The notes under the pieces were generated by a model. It ran no database searches. It was given only the letters and a program-made list of their open reading frames with translations, and was not told the DNA's origin. A DNA stretch of 64,000 nucleotides from Helicobacter sp. MIT 00-7814 (GTDB taxonomy: Bacteria; Campylobacterota; Campylobacteria; Campylobacterales; Helicobacteraceae). Below are positions 1,971-8,023 of the stretch, piece by piece. Location of the stretch: positions 18,373 through 82,372 of the forward strand of contig NZ_NXLL01000007.1 of the NCBI RefSeq assembly GCF_003364115.1, in the 5' to 3' direction. Position 1 is the stretch's first letter; every line of letters begins with the position of its first letter. Both the position numbers and the translations under genes were made by a program.

Positions 1971-2672
1971 TTATTTGCGCTTTTTGATTTCTGCGATACT
2001 TTCTACCACCACGCCCACGATGAGATTTAGCACGATAAAATTTGTAATGCAAATAAAGCTCACAAACACTGCCCACGCCCAATGATATTCCGCCATTACC
2101 GGGCGCACGATTCCCATCGACCAAGATTCTAGCGTCATTATTTGGAATAGCGTATAAAAGCTCTCCCCCAGACTTCCAAACCAATCCGGGAACTTCTCGC
2201 CAAAAAGATTCACACACAAAACCCCATAAGTGTAGTAAAACACCACAAGAAGCGCGAGAATCCCAAGCATTGAAGGCAGAGTATTTAGCATAGCAGAAGA
2301 GATAAGGCGCATTGATGGGATAACGCTAAGCAAGCGGAAAACTCGTATCACGCGCAATGCTCTAAGCACAGATATACCATTGCCCGCCGCCACGCTCACA
2401 ATGACGATAATAAAATCAAACCAATTCCACCCGCTCTCTTTGCCTATGAAAAATCTAAATCCATACGCCATTATGCGCGCCAAAATTTCTACTACAAAAA
2501 TCACCAAACATACACTATCAACGCCGCTAAGCACCGCACCAAAGCGCGCGCTTACAGGCTGTATCGTATCAAGCCCCAAAGTAAGCGCGTTTAAAAGAAT
2601 TATGCTAGTGATAAAAATACTCCACTTAGTGGATTCCAATATGCGTCTAAGCCATGAAAAACACTCAAGCAT
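1971..2672 (-). CDS. NaChBac-family prokaryotic voltage-gated sodium channel (single 6-TM domain)
   Basis: S4 voltage sensor with Arg every third residue (LRALRVIRVFRLLSVIPSMRL); pore/selectivity filter FQIMTLESWSMGIVRP nearly identical to NaChBac/NavAb TLESWSM; WNWFDF S3 motif; ends right after S6 (no C-terminal coiled coil). Confidence 0.9.
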   Translation of the reverse strand: MLECFSWLRRILESTKWSIFITSIILLNALTLGLDTIQPVSARFGAVLSGVDSVCLVIFVVEILARIMAYGFRFFIGKESGWNWFDFIIVIVSVAAGNGISVLRALRVIRVFRLLSVIPSMRLISSAMLNTLPSMLGILALLVVFYYTYGVLCVNLFGEKFPDWFGSLGESFYTLFQIMTLESWSMGIVRPVMAEYHWAWAVFVSFICITNFIVLNLIVGVVVESIAEIKKRK

Positions 2673-2680
2673 AAAGCCCC

Positions 2681-3040
2681 CTAGTTTTGTATCGCTACTA
2701 TTATGAAAAACACCACGACTACTAGCGCGATGATTTTGCCAATTTTCGTGGATAGGATTTTGCCAAGGATATTGCCTAGTATTTCTCCGCCTGCCATTCC
2801 TGCGCTAAACGCATCGGGATTAGATTTTCTTGCGTTAAGCAGTTTTGTTGTGGTGCCATCGTTAAAAGTGATAAGCAAGATTCCACCATCTGAATCAAAT
2901 CTACTTCTGCTTATCTCTCGTCTGCCGCTTTCGTCCATATAAGAGTAGCTAGCGACTTTTTCATAAACGCGCTGTGAGCCGTTTCCTTGAGTTATGATGA
3001 GTTTTGAGCCTTGTTGTGTGATATTTTTTATTGTTGCCAT
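2681..3040 (-). CDS. hypothetical small protein with C-terminal transmembrane anchor
   Basis: 119-aa ORF, hydrophobic C-terminus (IIALVVVVFFIIVAI); 8 nt upstream of channel gene on same strand. Confidence 0.4.
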   Translation of the reverse strand: MATIKNITQQGSKLIITQGNGSQRVYEKVASYSYMDESGRREISRSRFDSDGGILLITFNDGTTTKLLNARKSNPDAFSAGMAGGEILGNILGKILSTKIGKIIALVVVVFFIIVAIQN

Positions 3041-3076
3041 TGTTTGTTCCTTTCAAATGTGGCGTATCAAGTGGGA

Positions 3077-3739
3077 TTATTGAAATTTATACAAAAGGAT
3101 TTTGTCCTGCATTTGGTTGTAAGATTCTATGTCGCCGAGCTGGAAATACATTTTTGCTAGCTCTTGGAGTTGCTCTATATTTGGCGCAGTTTGAGCTGTA
3201 TTTTGGCTAGCTCCATTTTGACTATTTGGCGCGTTTTTATCCAAATCTTTTTCTATATCCTTTAGCACTTGCAAGGCTTTGGCAGTATCGATTGTTTGTG
3301 TTTCATCTTGCGTGCCTTGTGTGGAATCTAGCCCATCTAATTTAGAATCTAGCCCGCTTTTATCTTGCGCTTTTTGCGTTTCTTTGGCATAGATTTTGGT
3401 TAGATTCTGCTTTGGTAGCAAGGATATGAGCGCATTTTTATCTTTTGTGAGATCATTTTGAAGCTGTGAGATTCTGATACTTTCTAGCTTTGGATCGTTT
3501 TGCTTGAGGTGCGCTAGGAGTTGCGATCGCGCATAGATTCGCGCGCGTGCTTGTCCTTTGGCGTCAGCCTTATCCACAATAGGCGTGCAAATCACAAAAT
3601 ATTCCTGCCCCTCCAATGCTTGCTCTAATACCTTAGAATCCTTGCCCTCACATATTTGCTTAGCCTTTTCAAGTGGCGCGCCTTGCAATATCGCTACTTG
3701 CGCGCAAAGTAAAAGCGTGCAAATCCTAGAAGTCTTCAT
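3077..3739 (-). CDS. hypothetical secreted protein (signal peptide, Q/D-rich C-terminal half)
   Basis: ORF 3077-3772; start moved to Met12 (3739) where a signal peptide MKTSRICTLLLCAQVAILQG begins and overlap with upstream gene is removed; start choice uncertain. Confidence 0.45.
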   Translation of the reverse strand: MKTSRICTLLLCAQVAILQGAPLEKAKQICEGKDSKVLEQALEGQEYFVICTPIVDKADAKGQARARIYARSQLLAHLKQNDPKLESIRISQLQNDLTKDKNALISLLPKQNLTKIYAKETQKAQDKSGLDSKLDGLDSTQGTQDETQTIDTAKALQVLKDIEKDLDKNAPNSQNGASQNTAQTAPNIEQLQELAKMYFQLGDIESYNQMQDKILLYKFQ

Positions 3740-4232
3740 ATTTTTTGCTTGGCTTTTTTGGTTTCGCGTCACGATTCCAGCCTAGTGTCACGCGCACGAC
3801 TTTTGAGCTTTTATTTACCTGCGCTTTTATCGTTACGACATTTTTGAGTATGGCTTGAGATTGTGAGCTGATATTTTGCGTGAGCGTATCGACATCTTTT
3901 TTGCTGACACTTGCTTCGCCTTCAGAGCTTTGCTCGCTTAGGATTTTGCTTAGTTGTTCTTGGGACTCTTGAGATTTGATATCCTCGCTTAGGTATTTGC
4001 TGATATAGGCTTTGGCGGATAGCTCGGCTTTGGTGGTGGCTTGGCGTATATCTTTGGCATCACCAAAGTGATAGCTTGCCTCGCCGATAGAGATGATACG
4101 CGTGATTTCTTTAGTCTGCGGGTTTATGACGATTTCATTTCTTTGCACACCTAGCGTTTGCATATCTTCAAAGTCATCAGCGAGCCCTACGCTCACACAG
4201 CATATTAAAAGTAAAGAAAGAAGTTTTTTCAT
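3726..4232 (-). CDS. putative lipoprotein, possibly LPP20-like
   Basis: AAGGAG RBS; signal peptide with Cys (LLLICCVSVG); 168 aa, size/composition reminiscent of Helicobacter Lpp20-family lipoproteins; family call tentative. Confidence 0.45.
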   Translation of the reverse strand: MKKLLSLLLICCVSVGLADDFEDMQTLGVQRNEIVINPQTKEITRIISIGEASYHFGDAKDIRQATTKAELSAKAYISKYLSEDIKSQESQEQLSKILSEQSSEGEASVSKKDVDTLTQNISSQSQAILKNVVTIKAQVNKSSKVVRVTLGWNRDAKPKKPSKKYEDF

Positions 4233-4255
4233 GGTTTTGTCTCCTTGAGTGTTTT

Positions 4256-5455
4256 TTATTGTTTTTTGAGCGAAAATGAAGCTTTTATTTCACTAAGCTT
4301 TTTTACCTCCTCTTGTGTGAGATAAACTACCACCATAATATCTGGCGCATCTACGAGGAATTTACCGCCATAAGGCACTAGGAATCTATTTGGCTCATAG
4401 TTTCGTGCTGCGTTATATTCCTCCTCGCTAAACTTTTCCAATTTATGCTTATTTACATGAGCTACAGCATCATTTCCTTCTGCTGGATTCTCTTGAAAAT
4501 AATTAGGAGTAAAAAATCTTTTTGCAGGTGGGAATTCTTTATTATTTGCATCAAAAAATCTCACCTGTAGTTTTCCATAGTCAAATTTATTTAACTCTGA
4601 TTGCACATAGTTTTGAAACAAATCATTAATCCTTAGACTCCACAATACCTGCACTGCTGGCGCAAGGGTATAAAATCTCACAACGCTAGCACTGCGAATT
4701 CCGCCTATCCCAAAAAAGCTATAAGGAGCCCGACAGCCTCCATTGCTTTCACTCTCACTACTATCGCAAACCTGCCCTGCACTAGAGAGAAGCTTTTTCA
4801 CACCTTCTAGGTAGCCCTTTTGATATTTGATGCTTAATGTAAGCACATAGGCTTTATATTTGGGATCTTTTGGCATTTTAAAGGTATAGCACCAATACAC
4901 CTCATCGCGGCAATATTGATAAATCTCCGTAAGCTCTAATGGATCAAATTTCAAAATCTTTGTCTCCCATGCCTCGCCACTTTTTAGCGGCTCTATAACA
5001 GTAGCTTGGAATGCCTCTTGGAAGTTTTCTGCTTTTTTGTGGCTTTCATCGACATAGACTTTGAAAGTCCCAGAGTTCATATCTTTGACATCGACATTGA
5101 GATCTTTTAGCACGCCTACAAGCTTGCCATCTTCTATTTCTACTTGCGCTTTGACTTCATAGAGCCCATGCTGATTTTTATTAGCTGAAAGCTGTTTATA
5201 GTCCAGCACATACGCATTGCTAAAGCCGATTATTTTTTCATTGAGATTCTCATCTTCTAGCACTTGTTTGGTGCGGACGTATTCGCCCATAGATTCTCGC
5301 ACGGCGTTGGCTATGGCATCTTTTTTAGCAGCTTCTACGCTTTCACCTATGCCAATAGATTCTGTCGTTATGCTAGCGTTGAGTCCTTGCAGAAAAACAA
5401 AGGCAAAAAGACAGGCGCATATTTGCGCGCGGAATGTTTGATAAATAGTTTTCAT
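4256..5455 (-). CDS. hypothetical secreted protein (399 aa)
   Basis: AAGGAG RBS overlapping stop codon of upstream DUF285 gene (translational coupling); N-terminal signal peptide; no recognisable domain. Confidence 0.5.
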   Translation of the reverse strand: MKTIYQTFRAQICACLFAFVFLQGLNASITTESIGIGESVEAAKKDAIANAVRESMGEYVRTKQVLEDENLNEKIIGFSNAYVLDYKQLSANKNQHGLYEVKAQVEIEDGKLVGVLKDLNVDVKDMNSGTFKVYVDESHKKAENFQEAFQATVIEPLKSGEAWETKILKFDPLELTEIYQYCRDEVYWCYTFKMPKDPKYKAYVLTLSIKYQKGYLEGVKKLLSSAGQVCDSSESESNGGCRAPYSFFGIGGIRSASVVRFYTLAPAVQVLWSLRINDLFQNYVQSELNKFDYGKLQVRFFDANNKEFPPAKRFFTPNYFQENPAEGNDAVAHVNKHKLEKFSEEEYNAARNYEPNRFLVPYGGKFLVDAPDIMVVVYLTQEEVKKLSEIKASFSLKKQ

Positions 5456-5471: not shown

Positions 5472-7337
5472 TTATATGCGTCTTTTAAATTCTCTTACGC
5501 ATGACTCGTTGCGACCACAGCGCTTGCATCGATAATAGTCTTTTTCTTCACCAACTTTGTAGCTTACTCTTCTATAACTACCATCGCTTTGCTTCTCATC
5601 TTGGGTGATAATATTTTCACTCAATAACTCCGTCTTTACGAGTTTCCAGCAAAAATAGTTTCCACAGGATTCGCAGTAAGTATCACCTTTAATGCCGTAA
5701 AATACACCAACTATAGAAAGCACGATTAAAATCGCCCAAATGGTGAAAAATAATTCTTCTGAATATGCAACTCCAAAATATTTTAAAATTGCAACAATAA
5801 GCAATGTAAGGAAAAACCCAACTAAACCGCCTACGAGGATACCTCCTCCCAAAAATGACACGAGTATAGTGCCAAACCTAGTAGAAGTGCGATACTTCCA
5901 ATCTATTTTTTTAGTATTAGCGCGCTGTTTTTTCATTCGTGCTTCTTTTTTGTATTCTGGGGAGCTTATGTCATCTTGCTTGAAGCTTGTCGCACCTTCA
6001 AACATATTCTTCATACTCAAAACTTTGCTTACATTCCATTTATTAAGTGGTTGATTAAAGCTTGTCGCACCTGCAAACATATGTCCCATATTTATAACAC
6101 TACTTACATTCCATTTATTAAGTGGTTGATTAAAGCTTGCCGCATCCGAAAACATAAGAGACATATGTGCAACATTGCTTGTATCCCAATTATTAAGTGG
6201 TTGGTTGAAGCTTTTGGCGCGCTTAAACATACCAGTCATACCTGTAACACTACTTACATTCCATTTATTAAGTGGTTGATTGAAATTTTCCACACCTGAA
6301 AACATAAGCCCCATATCTGTAACACTACTTACATCCCATTTATCAAGTGGTTGATTAAAGCTTGTCGCACCTGCAAACATACACTGCATATCTGTAACAC
6401 TACTTACATTCCAATTATTAAGCGGTTGATTGAAGCTTTTGGCACTCATAAACATACTATTCATATCTGTAACACTACTTACATCCCAATTATCAAGTGG
6501 TTGATTGAAATATTCTGCATTCTCAAACATACTACTCATATCTGTAACATTACTTACATCCCAAGTCTCTATACCGCTAAAGTCCTTGCGCTTGCTCTCT
6601 TTGAAAAGCTCGCTCATATTAGTGATAGCGCTTGTATCAATATCTGCTAATGAGACATCTTCATCAAAAGCTAAAACTTTTAATACTATAGGGCTAGTTG
6701 GCTTATATTTTCCATTAATTTTTTGAAACCCTTTATTAAACCAGCTAGGGAGGCTCTGCATACCGCTAGATTCAAACATATCTTTTGCAGATATTGCTTT
6801 AACATTCCAGCTTTCAAGATTTTGATTGAAGTTTGTAGCATCCTTAAATATAAGAGCCATATCCATAACTTTGCTTACATTCCATTTATCAAGTGGTTGG
6901 TTAAAGCTTGTTGCACTCATAAATATACCTCTAATTTCTGCAACATTGCTTGTATTCCAATTGTTAAGTGGCTGGTTAAAGCTCGTTGCATGCGCAAACA
7001 TACCTTTCATATTTGTAACATTACTTATATCCCAAGAATTAAGCGGCTGATTAAAGCTTTTCGCATCTGCAAACATAAGAGACATATCTGTAACACTACT
7101 TACATCCCAAGAATCAAGTGGTTGGTTAAAGCTTGTTGTACCCGCAAACATAAACTTCATATTTGTAACATTACTTACATCCCAAGTCTCTATACCGCTA
7201 AAGTCCTTGCGCTTGCTCTCTTTGAAAAGTTCGCTCATATCAGTGATAGCACTTGTATCAATATCTCCTAAGTAGATACTTTCATCATTAACTAGATTTT
7301 GTAGTTCTTCTTTTGAGGTGGGTTTGTATTTTGCCAT
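5472..7337 (-). CDS. DUF285 (BspA-type / Mycoplasma-type leucine-rich repeat) protein with internal module duplication, two predicted TM helices and C-terminal C4 zinc ribbon
   Basis: about 12 copies of the ~26-aa repeat F..A..FNQPL..WdVS.VT.M..MF; residues 1-215 and 215-430 are near-duplicates (both contain IDTSAITDMSELFKESKRKDFSGIETWDVSNVT); hydrophobic stretches then CESCGNYFC...CKRCGRNESC; no signal peptide. Confidence 0.7.
   Translation of the reverse strand: MAKYKPTSKEELQNLVNDESIYLGDIDTSAITDMSELFKESKRKDFSGIETWDVSNVTNMKFMFAGTTSFNQPLDSWDVSSVTDMSLMFADAKSFNQPLNSWDISNVTNMKGMFAHATSFNQPLNNWNTSNVAEIRGIFMSATSFNQPLDKWNVSKVMDMALIFKDATNFNQNLESWNVKAISAKDMFESSGMQSLPSWFNKGFQKINGKYKPTSPIVLKVLAFDEDVSLADIDTSAITNMSELFKESKRKDFSGIETWDVSNVTDMSSMFENAEYFNQPLDNWDVSSVTDMNSMFMSAKSFNQPLNNWNVSSVTDMQCMFAGATSFNQPLDKWDVSSVTDMGLMFSGVENFNQPLNKWNVSSVTGMTGMFKRAKSFNQPLNNWDTSNVAHMSLMFSDAASFNQPLNKWNVSSVINMGHMFAGATSFNQPLNKWNVSKVLSMKNMFEGATSFKQDDISSPEYKKEARMKKQRANTKKIDWKYRTSTRFGTILVSFLGGGILVGGLVGFFLTLLIVAILKYFGVAYSEELFFTIWAILIVLSIVGVFYGIKGDTYCESCGNYFCWKLVKTELLSENIITQDEKQSDGSYRRVSYKVGEEKDYYRCKRCGRNESCVREFKRRI
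5740..7271. repeat. coding periodic repeat array (~78-bp DUF285 units) with higher-order ~620-bp direct duplication
   Basis: e.g. 6551-6665 vs 7176-7285 nearly identical; generates long spurious antisense ORFs. Confidence 0.7.
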
Positions 7338-7340
7338 GTT

Positions 7341-7967
7341 TTATCCTTTGTTATAAACTTTGCATTTTTCTTTATTTGCTTTGACATAATCGATAAAGTT
7401 TTGCACATCCTCTGCCTCTGTAATTTCGCCATAGCAAGTTTGCCTCTCTGGGAGATTTGGGCGGATATTTTCAGGGATGCTAAGCGCATTTTTAGGGCCA
7501 AAGTAGTAAAACTCCTCGCACACTAGCACAAAAAGTGATTTCAAATCATGTGTTTTATCATCATCATGTGATTGACATCCCGCATTATTATGTGAGCAAT
7601 CTGAACCTGCTTCACCATTTGAAGGGTGATTTTTATTTGGAAAAACTTTAAAGCCTTGTGGTTCGTCTGCGCTAGGCTCATAAATATTATCACCTTGCGT
7701 GTTGGTGGCATCCGGGCGCTTTTGTGGGTAAGATTCCCAATACTCGGCAAAAGTTAGCCTTTTGGTGATTTTGGCTAGGTAGATGAGCTTTTCTTTTCCT
7801 ATTTCTGAGCCATCAAGTGTTTTGGAGCTAAAGCCCGCTATCCACTCGCCAACTTTCGCCACCTCTCTAATATATGGCTTGCAAGTAGCAAGAGTAAGCA
7901 CGCCAAAATCATAATTTGGCGCAAATCCACTATCTACGGTCATTTTATATGAACGAAGTAAGGACAC
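7341..7967 (-). CDS. conserved hypothetical protein (N-terminal motif DSGFAPNYDFGVLTLATCKP; possibly Nmad2-like nucleotide-modification-associated domain)
   Basis: 208-aa ORF, GTG start at 7967 preceded by AGGAGG; 3-nt gap to DUF285 gene; family assignment from memory only. Confidence 0.4.
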   Translation of the reverse strand: MSLLRSYKMTVDSGFAPNYDFGVLTLATCKPYIREVAKVGEWIAGFSSKTLDGSEIGKEKLIYLAKITKRLTFAEYWESYPQKRPDATNTQGDNIYEPSADEPQGFKVFPNKNHPSNGEAGSDCSHNNAGCQSHDDDKTHDLKSLFVLVCEEFYYFGPKNALSIPENIRPNLPERQTCYGEITEAEDVQNFIDYVKANKEKCKVYNKG

Positions 7968-8013: not shown

Positions 8014-8023
8014 CCCCCCCCCC
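8014..8023. repeat. homopolymeric C10 tract (G10 on the minus/coding side) in promoter region of the 7967-1971 gene cluster
   Basis: minus strand reads TTTAATAAGGGGGGGGGGCATAATGCGAC...ATTAGGAGGTTCTGTG; tract abuts a CATAAT -10-like hexamer ~47 nt upstream of the GTG start. Confidence 0.85.

Follow-up and report, generated by a model that had tools for sequence, protein, structure and literature searches.

A lineage-specific in-frame fusion of DUF285/PARCEL repeats to a membrane zinc-ribbon protein in Helicobacter sp. MIT 00-7814

DUF285/PARCEL proteins are built from tandem units of 25 residues (75 nt), which horizontal transfer has distributed in a patchy manner (Röske et al., 2010, BMC Genomics 11:430; PMC2996958). 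These units have been reported in lipoproteins, in bitopic and two-transmembrane (TM) membrane proteins and in open reading frames (ORFs) without a targeting signal, and ORFs on the strand opposite to the repeats were already noted in the same study (PMC2996958). The experimentally studied DUF285 proteins LppQ and LppC are mycoplasma surface lipoproteins or secreted proteins (PMC2996958), as, reportedly, are MbovP0145 and MbovP467. The family is a numerous one: a search with the repeat protein described here returned 7,832 of 8,000 scored candidates at E ≤ 1e-20. That protein is encoded by a minus-strand ORF at positions 5472-7337 of a 64,000-nt stretch of the genome of Helicobacter sp. MIT 00-7814 (contig NZ_NXLL01000007.1, positions 18,373 to 82,372), which we call the window. 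The gene is a lineage-specific, in-frame chimera of a DUF285/PARCEL part and a membrane zinc-ribbon protein, whose family we here name ZnR.

We favour, with moderate confidence, the explanation that this chimera uses the ZnR hairpin to hold two DUF285 solenoid modules at the inner membrane, on its cytoplasmic face, and that it reports a functional partnership between DUF285 and ZnR. The domain identities, the repeat anatomy, the insertion or deletion described below, the neighbourhood links and the rarity of ZnR as a stand-alone protein are observed; how the product sits in the membrane, whether its two parts are physical partners and what role they might have are inferred. The fusion partner, the insertion or deletion (indel) that distinguishes the window from its sister lineage, and a cassette of ZnR, 8xMP, DUF285 and Nmad2 genes are genuinely new. 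The features that first drew attention to the gene are ordinary PARCEL/DUF285 traits and have already been published.

PARCEL proteins such as Helicobacter hepaticus HH0050 and Mycoplasma mycoides LppQ and LppC are among the nearest known counterparts. The fusion gene shares with them the 25-residue/75-nt units that match PF03382 and TIGR02167, a patchy phyletic distribution, the occurrence in varied membrane frameworks (two-TM ones included) and in signal-less ORFs, and the opposite-strand ORFs. It differs in three respects. A framework of two TM helices plus a four-cysteine zinc ribbon is not described in the accessible part of PMC2996958; the repeats of the fusion are predicted to lie in the cytoplasm, in contrast to those of the characterised members, which are surface lipoproteins; and the fusion gene shows no detectable dyad symmetry, as no inverted repeats of at least 12 nt (seed 7, distance ≤80) were found in 5900-7340, a search unlike the statistical motif method with which Röske et al. 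defined the PARCEL symmetry, which by their own account may be eroded. The leucine-rich repeat (LRR) solenoids of YopM, the TLR4 ectodomain and SHOC2 resemble the AlphaFold2 (AF2) model of the fusion protein in having one beta-strand per ~25-residue unit. Such LRR proteins head the Foldseek list against PDB for the full-length model, which is a low-confidence single-sequence model (predicted local distance difference test, pLDDT, 64), and their matches are not significant (best E=0.02, TM-score ~0.12). A sequence search of PDB gave nothing for the fusion protein, and no solved DUF285 structure was found by sequence.

Architecture of the fusion protein

The 621-aa product is identical to an NCBI protein of the same strain (P0002) that bears the product name 'BspA family leucine-rich repeat surface protein'. 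It matches PF03382 (DUF285) above the curated threshold (E=5e-154, 504 bits, cut-off 25) and, in nine stretches, TIGR02167, now called 'PARCEL repeat-containing surface protein' (E=4e-58, 192.5 bits, cut-off 30). These matches, together with the parsing given below, bear out the preliminary description of the gene, made from its letters, as one encoding a DUF285 repeat protein with two modules. DUF285 was the sole significant match in a Pfam scan of the fusion protein, which revealed neither a type IX secretion system (T9SS) sorting domain nor a DarT domain. The gene ends in a stop codon at 5472-5474; its ATG has an AAGGA Shine-Dalgarno sequence ~8 nt on the 5' side and begins 3 nt past the end of the stop codon of an upstream gene for an Nmad2 domain protein.

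Module 1 (aa 1-207; 6717-7337, minus strand, like all features given below unless stated otherwise) consists of the head 'MAKYKPTSKEELQNLVNDESIYLGDIDTSAITDMSELF', six further 25-aa units and a C-cap '...SLPSWF'. Module 2 (aa 208-458; 5964-6716) consists of a second head, 'GKYKPTS...DIDTSAITNMSELF', and eight further 25-aa units; it has no C-cap, and its array stops within a unit ('GATSFKQ'). The conserved 'W[ND]xS' anchor used for this parsing occurs 14 times, in addition to two partial first units, and gives seven units in module 1 and nine in module 2. A period of 75 nt, or 25 aa, was found both by Tandem Repeats Finder (7.8 + 4.6 copies) and by a separate repeat-spacing search, in place of the ~78 bp and 26 aa first described. 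The module bounds first proposed (residues 1-215 and 215-430) are likewise superseded, and the modules are far from near-identical, as they had been called: identity is 61.6% with those bounds and 66.7% between the true modules.

The direct repeat of ~620 bp noted earlier is real. A segment covering the end of the head and the first unit of module 1 (7145-7287) recurs at an offset of 621 bp in module 2 (6524-6666) with 131/144 positions identical, which corresponds to 91% over ~140 bp, and reaches 97-98% in 60-nt windows at gene positions 91-180 (a 110-nt core); past gene position ~510, identity at this offset falls to a background of 18-40%. The first unit has 93% DNA identity between modules, and the other units are 64-86% alike with no in-register match between modules. 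Only the head/first-unit segment looks recently homogenised, and its copy in module 2 is likely to result from recent gene conversion between the modules. The long repeat-driven ORFs that had been reported on the antisense strand are also present, because one antisense frame of the 75-nt consensus unit is stop-free. The longest, at 6723-7271 on the plus strand, would encode 182 aa, with no evidence of coding; others lie at 5976-6299 and 6351-6650, and the plus-strand ORFs inside the gene measure 182, 107, 104 and 99 aa.

The C-terminal part opens with a basic linker (aa 459-487; 5877-5963) that holds 11 lysines or arginines (K/R) and 3 aspartates or glutamates (D/E). Two hydrophobic helices follow, as previously described and now located by hydropathy and AF2: an unusually long segment of 34 aa with a GGG kink (aa ~488-521; 5775-5876) and, after the inter-helix loop 'GVAYSEEL', a second segment (aa ~530-551; 5685-5750). 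The zinc-ribbon domain (aa 552-621; 5475-5684) is modelled as a three-stranded beta sheet with the knuckles C555-x2-C558 and C604-x2-C607 (AF2 pLDDT 94-97). The earlier recognition of a CxxC...CxxC zinc ribbon holds well, as these four cysteines (C80, C83, C129 and C132 of the fragment) are invariant in an alignment of 24 family sequences. What the preliminary description missed is that this C-terminal part belongs to a separate family, that the fusion is lineage-specific and that an Nmad2 gene lies directly upstream.

The ZnR family was delimited with a profile made from residues 476-621 of the fusion protein and one close homologue (P0001); exhaustive HMMER searching of 1.84 billion representatives gave 24 matches at E≤1e-3 (P0001 and P0122-P0144, with P0122 at 2.5e-16). 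All but one of the members (411 aa) are 95-208 aa long. The retrieved sequences have a hydrophobic N-terminal part, with two TM helices in most, and a common ribbon motif, 'C..C ... TE(T)LSE ... Y.VG.E..YY.C..CG', which is also found in the fusion protein; the ZnR protein of one further locus (L025) is 45% identical to the fusion C-terminus (blastp, E=2e-21). DUF285 repeats occur in 0/14 of the retrieved sequences, and the length of most others leaves no room for a module. The fusion protein thus holds a ZnR domain without being a small single-domain protein (621 aa vs ~95-208), because of its N-terminal DUF285 fusion. With the family alignment, AF2 modelled the ZnR part at pLDDT 82.7 overall and 94-97 over the three-stranded ribbon, and Foldseek against PDB found no significant match for this model (best E=0.25). 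No Pfam family reached its threshold on ZnR proteins, which gave weak generic zinc-ribbon matches only; tblastn against plasmid and phage collections returned no match, so there is no evidence that ZnR is carried on mobile elements.

Origin of the fusion and its relatives

Three metagenome contigs of a close relative (L001-L003) are collinear with the window, their flanking DNA being 80-97% identical to it. In one of them (L003), positions 1-691 align to window 8007-7351, in the Nmad2 gene, and positions 718-1172 to window 5913-5463, in ZnR. The block in between, 5914-7350, holds the whole DUF285 part (aa 1-475) and measures 1437 bp in the window vs 26 bp in the relative, where it comprises the Nmad2 TAA stop codon, AAGGAG and the ATG of a stand-alone ZnR gene ('MSKKINWKHR...'). 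Homology resumes at the start codon of the relative, which corresponds to aa 476 of the fusion protein ('TKKIDWKYR' vs 'MSKKINWKHR'), and the junctions are A-rich ('ATGGCAAAA...' and 'ACTAAAAAAATA' in the window vs 'ATGAGTAAAAAAATA' in the relative). In all of the more distant genomes, ZnR is encoded by a gene of its own, which marks the fused state as derived.

Divergence between the window and this relative is mosaic: the gene for a secreted 399-aa protein downstream is 96.8% identical (L002 799-1229 vs 5276-4846), ZnR 83% (243-788 vs 5913-5372) and Nmad2 80% (2-216 vs 7565-7351). This pattern points to recombination in the Nmad2-ZnR segment or to a higher rate of change there.

Elsewhere, ZnR genes keep company with a protein of the 'octameric membrane protein family' (8xMP, PF24838), which directly follows ZnR in four lineages, its start codon often overlapping the ZnR stop codon (L024 792-1601, L030 773-1537, L033 5361-6065 and L034 ~806-1046), and which is also present in L031. 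Literature searches on 8xMP found nothing relevant, and it had no PDB sequence match. Two of these loci, L024 and L033, have the order ZnR-8xMP-DUF285, co-directional and with little or no spacing. The DUF285 protein of L024 (1594-3069, 491 aa) starts with 'MAKYTPKTREEL...' / 'MAKYTPKTREELRYLVQDESIYLGDIDTS', has two modules that align in register with those of the fusion (50% identity, C-cap and second head included), carries no signal peptide and ends in a basic linker plus one TM helix; that of L033 (6076-7251, 391 aa) is a one-module version. Both share with the fusion protein the N-terminus 'MAKY(K/T)P...EEL..LV.DESIYLGDIDTS', the lack of a signal peptide, a basic linker followed by a membrane anchor, and the linkage to ZnR, and L024 also shares the two-module order with C-cap. 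They differ in that DUF285 and ZnR are separate genes with 8xMP between them and that the DUF285 protein has its own single TM helix, whereas in the fusion, encoded in a window without 8xMP, the DUF285 part uses the ZnR helices as its anchor. A recent whole-module tandem duplication in the fusion gene is rejected: the two-module layout is common to the fusion and to the L024 protein, in register.

One extra locus, recovered by a metagenome scan with a narrower ZnR alignment (L034), encodes an Nmad2 C-terminus (42% identity, E=8e-17), ZnR and an 8xMP N-terminus. No Nmad2, 8xMP or DUF285 partner was found in the ZnR contexts L026, L029, L035-38 and L039-40, and L027/28 do not extend far enough to show one. 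An obligate partnership of ZnR with Nmad2 is rejected as a general rule, since most ZnR contexts lack Nmad2. Taken together, the loci reveal a cassette of variable make-up, with Nmad2, ZnR, 8xMP and TM-anchored DUF285 proteins, whose association is recurrent, not universal; counting the window's fusion, there are two independent DUF285-ZnR links. The fusion of what are separate genes in these cassettes suggests, by the Rosetta stone argument, that DUF285 modules and ZnR normally work together.

A second set of relatives has a different partner. Proteins of Campylobacter devanensis/lanienae (P0003, P0005, P0023, P0033, P0067 and P0073) combine an N-terminal DarT domain (PF14487, single-stranded DNA thymidine ADP-ribosyltransferase) with DUF285 modules. 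Among the highest-ranking matches to the repeat part they predominate (ranks 2-4), with identities of up to 57% across 89% of the query. They resemble the fusion protein in the head motif, the multi-module layout and the lack of a signal peptide. Their partner domain, however, is an N-terminal DarT where the fusion protein has a membrane zinc ribbon at its C-terminus, and they lack TM segments and end in an acidic tail ('...DDDEIPF'). Near the one such gene whose locus was examined (L023 6001-7935), no DarG/macrodomain gene was present and the neighbours were housekeeping genes; a literature search found no paper mentioning DarT together with DUF285. These orthologues have near-identical N-termini and 1-4 module heads and so show directly that close relatives differ in module number; several DUF285 modules are also found in H. 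cinaedi P0008. The 75-nt units and the 97-98% identical core 621 bp apart make gain or loss of units or modules by recombination plausible for the fusion gene as well; the presence/absence difference from the nearest relative and the Campylobacter orthologues with 1-4 modules are both in line with this.

Topology and competing explanations

The 29 aa that precede helix 1 contain 11 K/R, and the inter-helix loop has no K/R and two acidic residues. Among ZnR members with separable helices, the loops hold 2 K/R vs 9 D/E, and the 15 residues after helix 2 hold 36 K/R vs 8 D/E. By the positive-inside rule, this charge distribution puts both the ribbon and the DUF285-attached segment in the cytoplasm, and the invariant cysteine quartet fits a cytoplasmic zinc site. 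The N-terminus is hydrophilic (maximal Kyte-Doolittle 19-residue mean 0.43 in the first ~48 residues), in agreement with the signal peptide having been declared missing from the outset; hydropathy and Pfam revealed no signal peptide, lipobox or recognised C-terminal sorting domain in the fusion protein. It is from the basic flank and the missing signal alone that the cytoplasmic placement of the repeats follows, and on such predictions the fusion probably places them inside the cell and not on its surface. In the mechanism that we favour, a complete, signal-less two-module DUF285/PARCEL unit has become fused, in frame, with the beginning of the small pre-existing inner-membrane protein ZnR, whose hairpin of two TM helices would anchor the product in the inner membrane; both DUF285 beta-solenoid modules and the zinc ribbon would face the cytoplasm, and the repeats may serve as the binding surface of a membrane-associated DUF285-ZnR complex.

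Several observations weigh against this explanation. The topology was derived from the positive-inside rule and a crude hydropathy scan, and segment 1, with its 34 aa and GGG kink, makes a three-TM topology possible. The A-rich microhomology at the junctions makes both an insertion here and a microhomology-mediated deletion in the relative mechanistically possible. DUF285 adjoins ZnR in only 2/9 of the other lineage contexts examined, and these two lineages (L024 and L033) are related, their ZnR proteins P0122 and P0125 being 70% identical. Further points would also speak for the rival reading that the gene arose by a recent accident and has no function, that it is a chimera in decay, or that it was created by the assembly; a mobile repeat block would have landed on, or been misjoined to, a small gene already being lost in this lineage. 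The fusion is found in one genome only (P0002 cluster size 1); no 8xMP homologue was found in the 64-kb window by tblastn, so that this partner gene is missing; the ZnR TM region has 13 nonsynonymous and 3 synonymous changes relative to the close relative, which looks relaxed; and the unit counts come from a short-read assembly and may be wrong, repeats being prone to misassembly. In addition, the reading frame of the relative's ZnR is shifted by one base at a T8 tract in TM1 (L001 675-682), the same in the three independent assemblies L001-L003, and that of the L034 ZnR is shifted by one base at an A8 tract (564-571) past TM2, on a contig of 2x coverage. These homopolymer frameshifts in Nmad2-linked stand-alone ZnR genes could reflect phase variation, gene decay or, for L034, sequencing error. 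Against an accident or artefact stand the frame of 621 codons, which stays open across 16 recombination-prone units; the junction, which keeps the frame exactly at the site of the old start codon and comes with a good Shine-Dalgarno sequence and tight coupling to Nmad2; the 41-aa zinc-ribbon core that is identical in window and relative despite a nucleotide identity of ~82-83% over the gene; and the independent co-encoding of DUF285 and ZnR in L024 and L033. We consider such an origin unlikely.

A conventional surface or secreted BspA/DUF285 adhesin, with repeats exported non-classically (by an N-out/C-out hairpin, flagellar type III export or another route), would agree with the 'surface protein' name given by NCBI and with the surface or secreted location of the DUF285 proteins studied so far (PMC2996958). 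Among the 120 best matches to the repeat part, a crude hydropathy scan assigned a signal-like N-terminus to 50, many of which carry the T9SS sorting domain PF18962, neither signal nor TM to 62, and a TM without a signal to 8, five of these having it at the C-terminus. The same survey shows that calling the architecture atypical was an overstatement, since 70/120 of these matches have no signal-like N-terminus, and two-TM and signal-less PARCEL ORFs have been published (PMC2996958). For the fusion protein itself, export would require a 475-aa N-terminal domain to cross the membrane unsignalled, with neither signal peptide nor lipobox; moreover, the basic segment before TM1 marks the cytoplasmic side, the charge bias of the ZnR family puts the ribbon, with its invariant cysteines, inside, and DarT, to which sister modules are fused, is an enzyme domain whose DNA substrate lies within the cell, which we count in favour of cytoplasmic repeats. 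Taken together, these points make a surface adhesin quite improbable.

Genomic neighbourhood and significance

The gene upstream of the fusion gene (7341-7967) has a GTG start and encodes a 208-aa Nmad2 domain protein recognised by Pfam. The two genes are probably co-transcribed; no terminator was found between them, in a promoter and terminator scan that showed no excess over shuffles. A G10 homopolymer (8014-8023, C10 on the plus strand) stands 47 nt before the Nmad2 start, with a CATAAT hexamer adjoining it on the 3' side, and is one of only three G/C runs of at least 7 nt in the 64 kb, with G11 at 9425-9435 and C10 at 26152-26161. From its position, the G10 tract looks like a candidate promoter-spacer phase-variation tract of an Nmad2-DUF285::ZnR operon. 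The G11 and C10 runs are also intergenic and upstream of genes; contig L003 of the close relative starts 6 nt after the position equivalent to the G10 tract.

Few Campylobacterota carry Nmad2: in the species representatives of GTDB, the best match (54% identity) is one Helicobacter metagenome-assembled genome. The other 18 matches (L004-L022 set) are from Bacteroidales/Bacteroidia, at 39-51% identity. At many Bacteroidales loci a gene of ~266 aa follows Nmad2, and it encodes Nmad3 (PF18754) in 2/2 tested; a WYL/WCX regulator and an HD-domain gene lie nearby in some. No Nmad3 was found in the window, and a solo Nmad2 suggests horizontal acquisition. A PDB sequence search with Nmad2 gave a chance match only, and literature searches on Nmad2 yielded nothing of relevance.

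Downstream of the fusion gene lies a conserved cluster (1971-5455) with genes for the secreted 399-aa protein (4256-5455), proteins of 168 aa (3726-4232) and 231 aa (3077-3772), and an Ion_trans protein (1971-2672); Pfam found no match in the non-channel proteins. The same arrangement, with a ~360-400-aa secreted protein, one or two ~170-230-aa proteins and a ~240-aa single-domain Ion_trans protein resembling voltage-gated channels, recurs at L025 1682-4826 and L030 1534-4572. In L030 the order is ZnR, 8xMP, 360-aa, 210-aa, 216-aa and Ion_trans, and the proteins match those of the window in the same order (360/399 at 54%, 210/168 at 40%, channel at 56%) except for the 216/231 pair, which gave no match. 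In L025 the same cluster genes have ZnR at their opposite end, and 4/4 neighbours match the window (187/231 pair at 27%). Going by this gene order, ZnR is native to the neighbourhood.

It is very unlikely, in our view, that the locus is a phase-variable conflict or defence module in which Nmad2, a membrane-tethered DUF285 sensor and a ZnR membrane effector would act by analogy with repeat-sensor immune proteins: the Nmad2 gene directly upstream in the window, L001-3 and L034, the listing of a nucleotide-modification associated domain in a defence-prediction paper (PMC13092281), the DarT toxin domain of the closest DUF285 relatives, the G10 tract in the promoter region, the ZnR homopolymer frameshifts and a Type ISP restriction-enzyme fragment near ZnR in L029 would all suit it, but PADLOC found nothing below E=0.097 for six locus proteins and nothing credible or below E=0.008 for the cassette proteins of L024, L030 and L033, Nmad2 lacks its usual partner Nmad3 in the window and is missing from most ZnR contexts, the neighbours are housekeeping, envelope or channel genes with no defence island, and the phage and plasmid collections contain no match to ZnR.

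Returning to the membrane-tethered chimera that we favour, a broader proposal, possible though on balance doubtful, is that one Campylobacterota clade of DUF285/PARCEL proteins consists not of surface proteins but of cytoplasmic, membrane-tethered binding modules that would work with a previously undescribed ZnR and 8xMP apparatus, sometimes together with Nmad2, as an intracellular sensor or adaptor in phase-variable conflict or in envelope signalling; in sister genes, these modules are joined to the DarT DNA ADP-ribosyltransferase. ZnR, as defined here, is a small and uncharacterised family of membrane zinc-ribbon proteins, and the DUF285::ZnR fusion, with the co-encoding cassettes, gives one DUF285 clade a concrete, testable partner. 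DUF285/PARCEL proteins are routinely annotated as 'surface proteins', and the fusion gives reason to doubt that blanket label.

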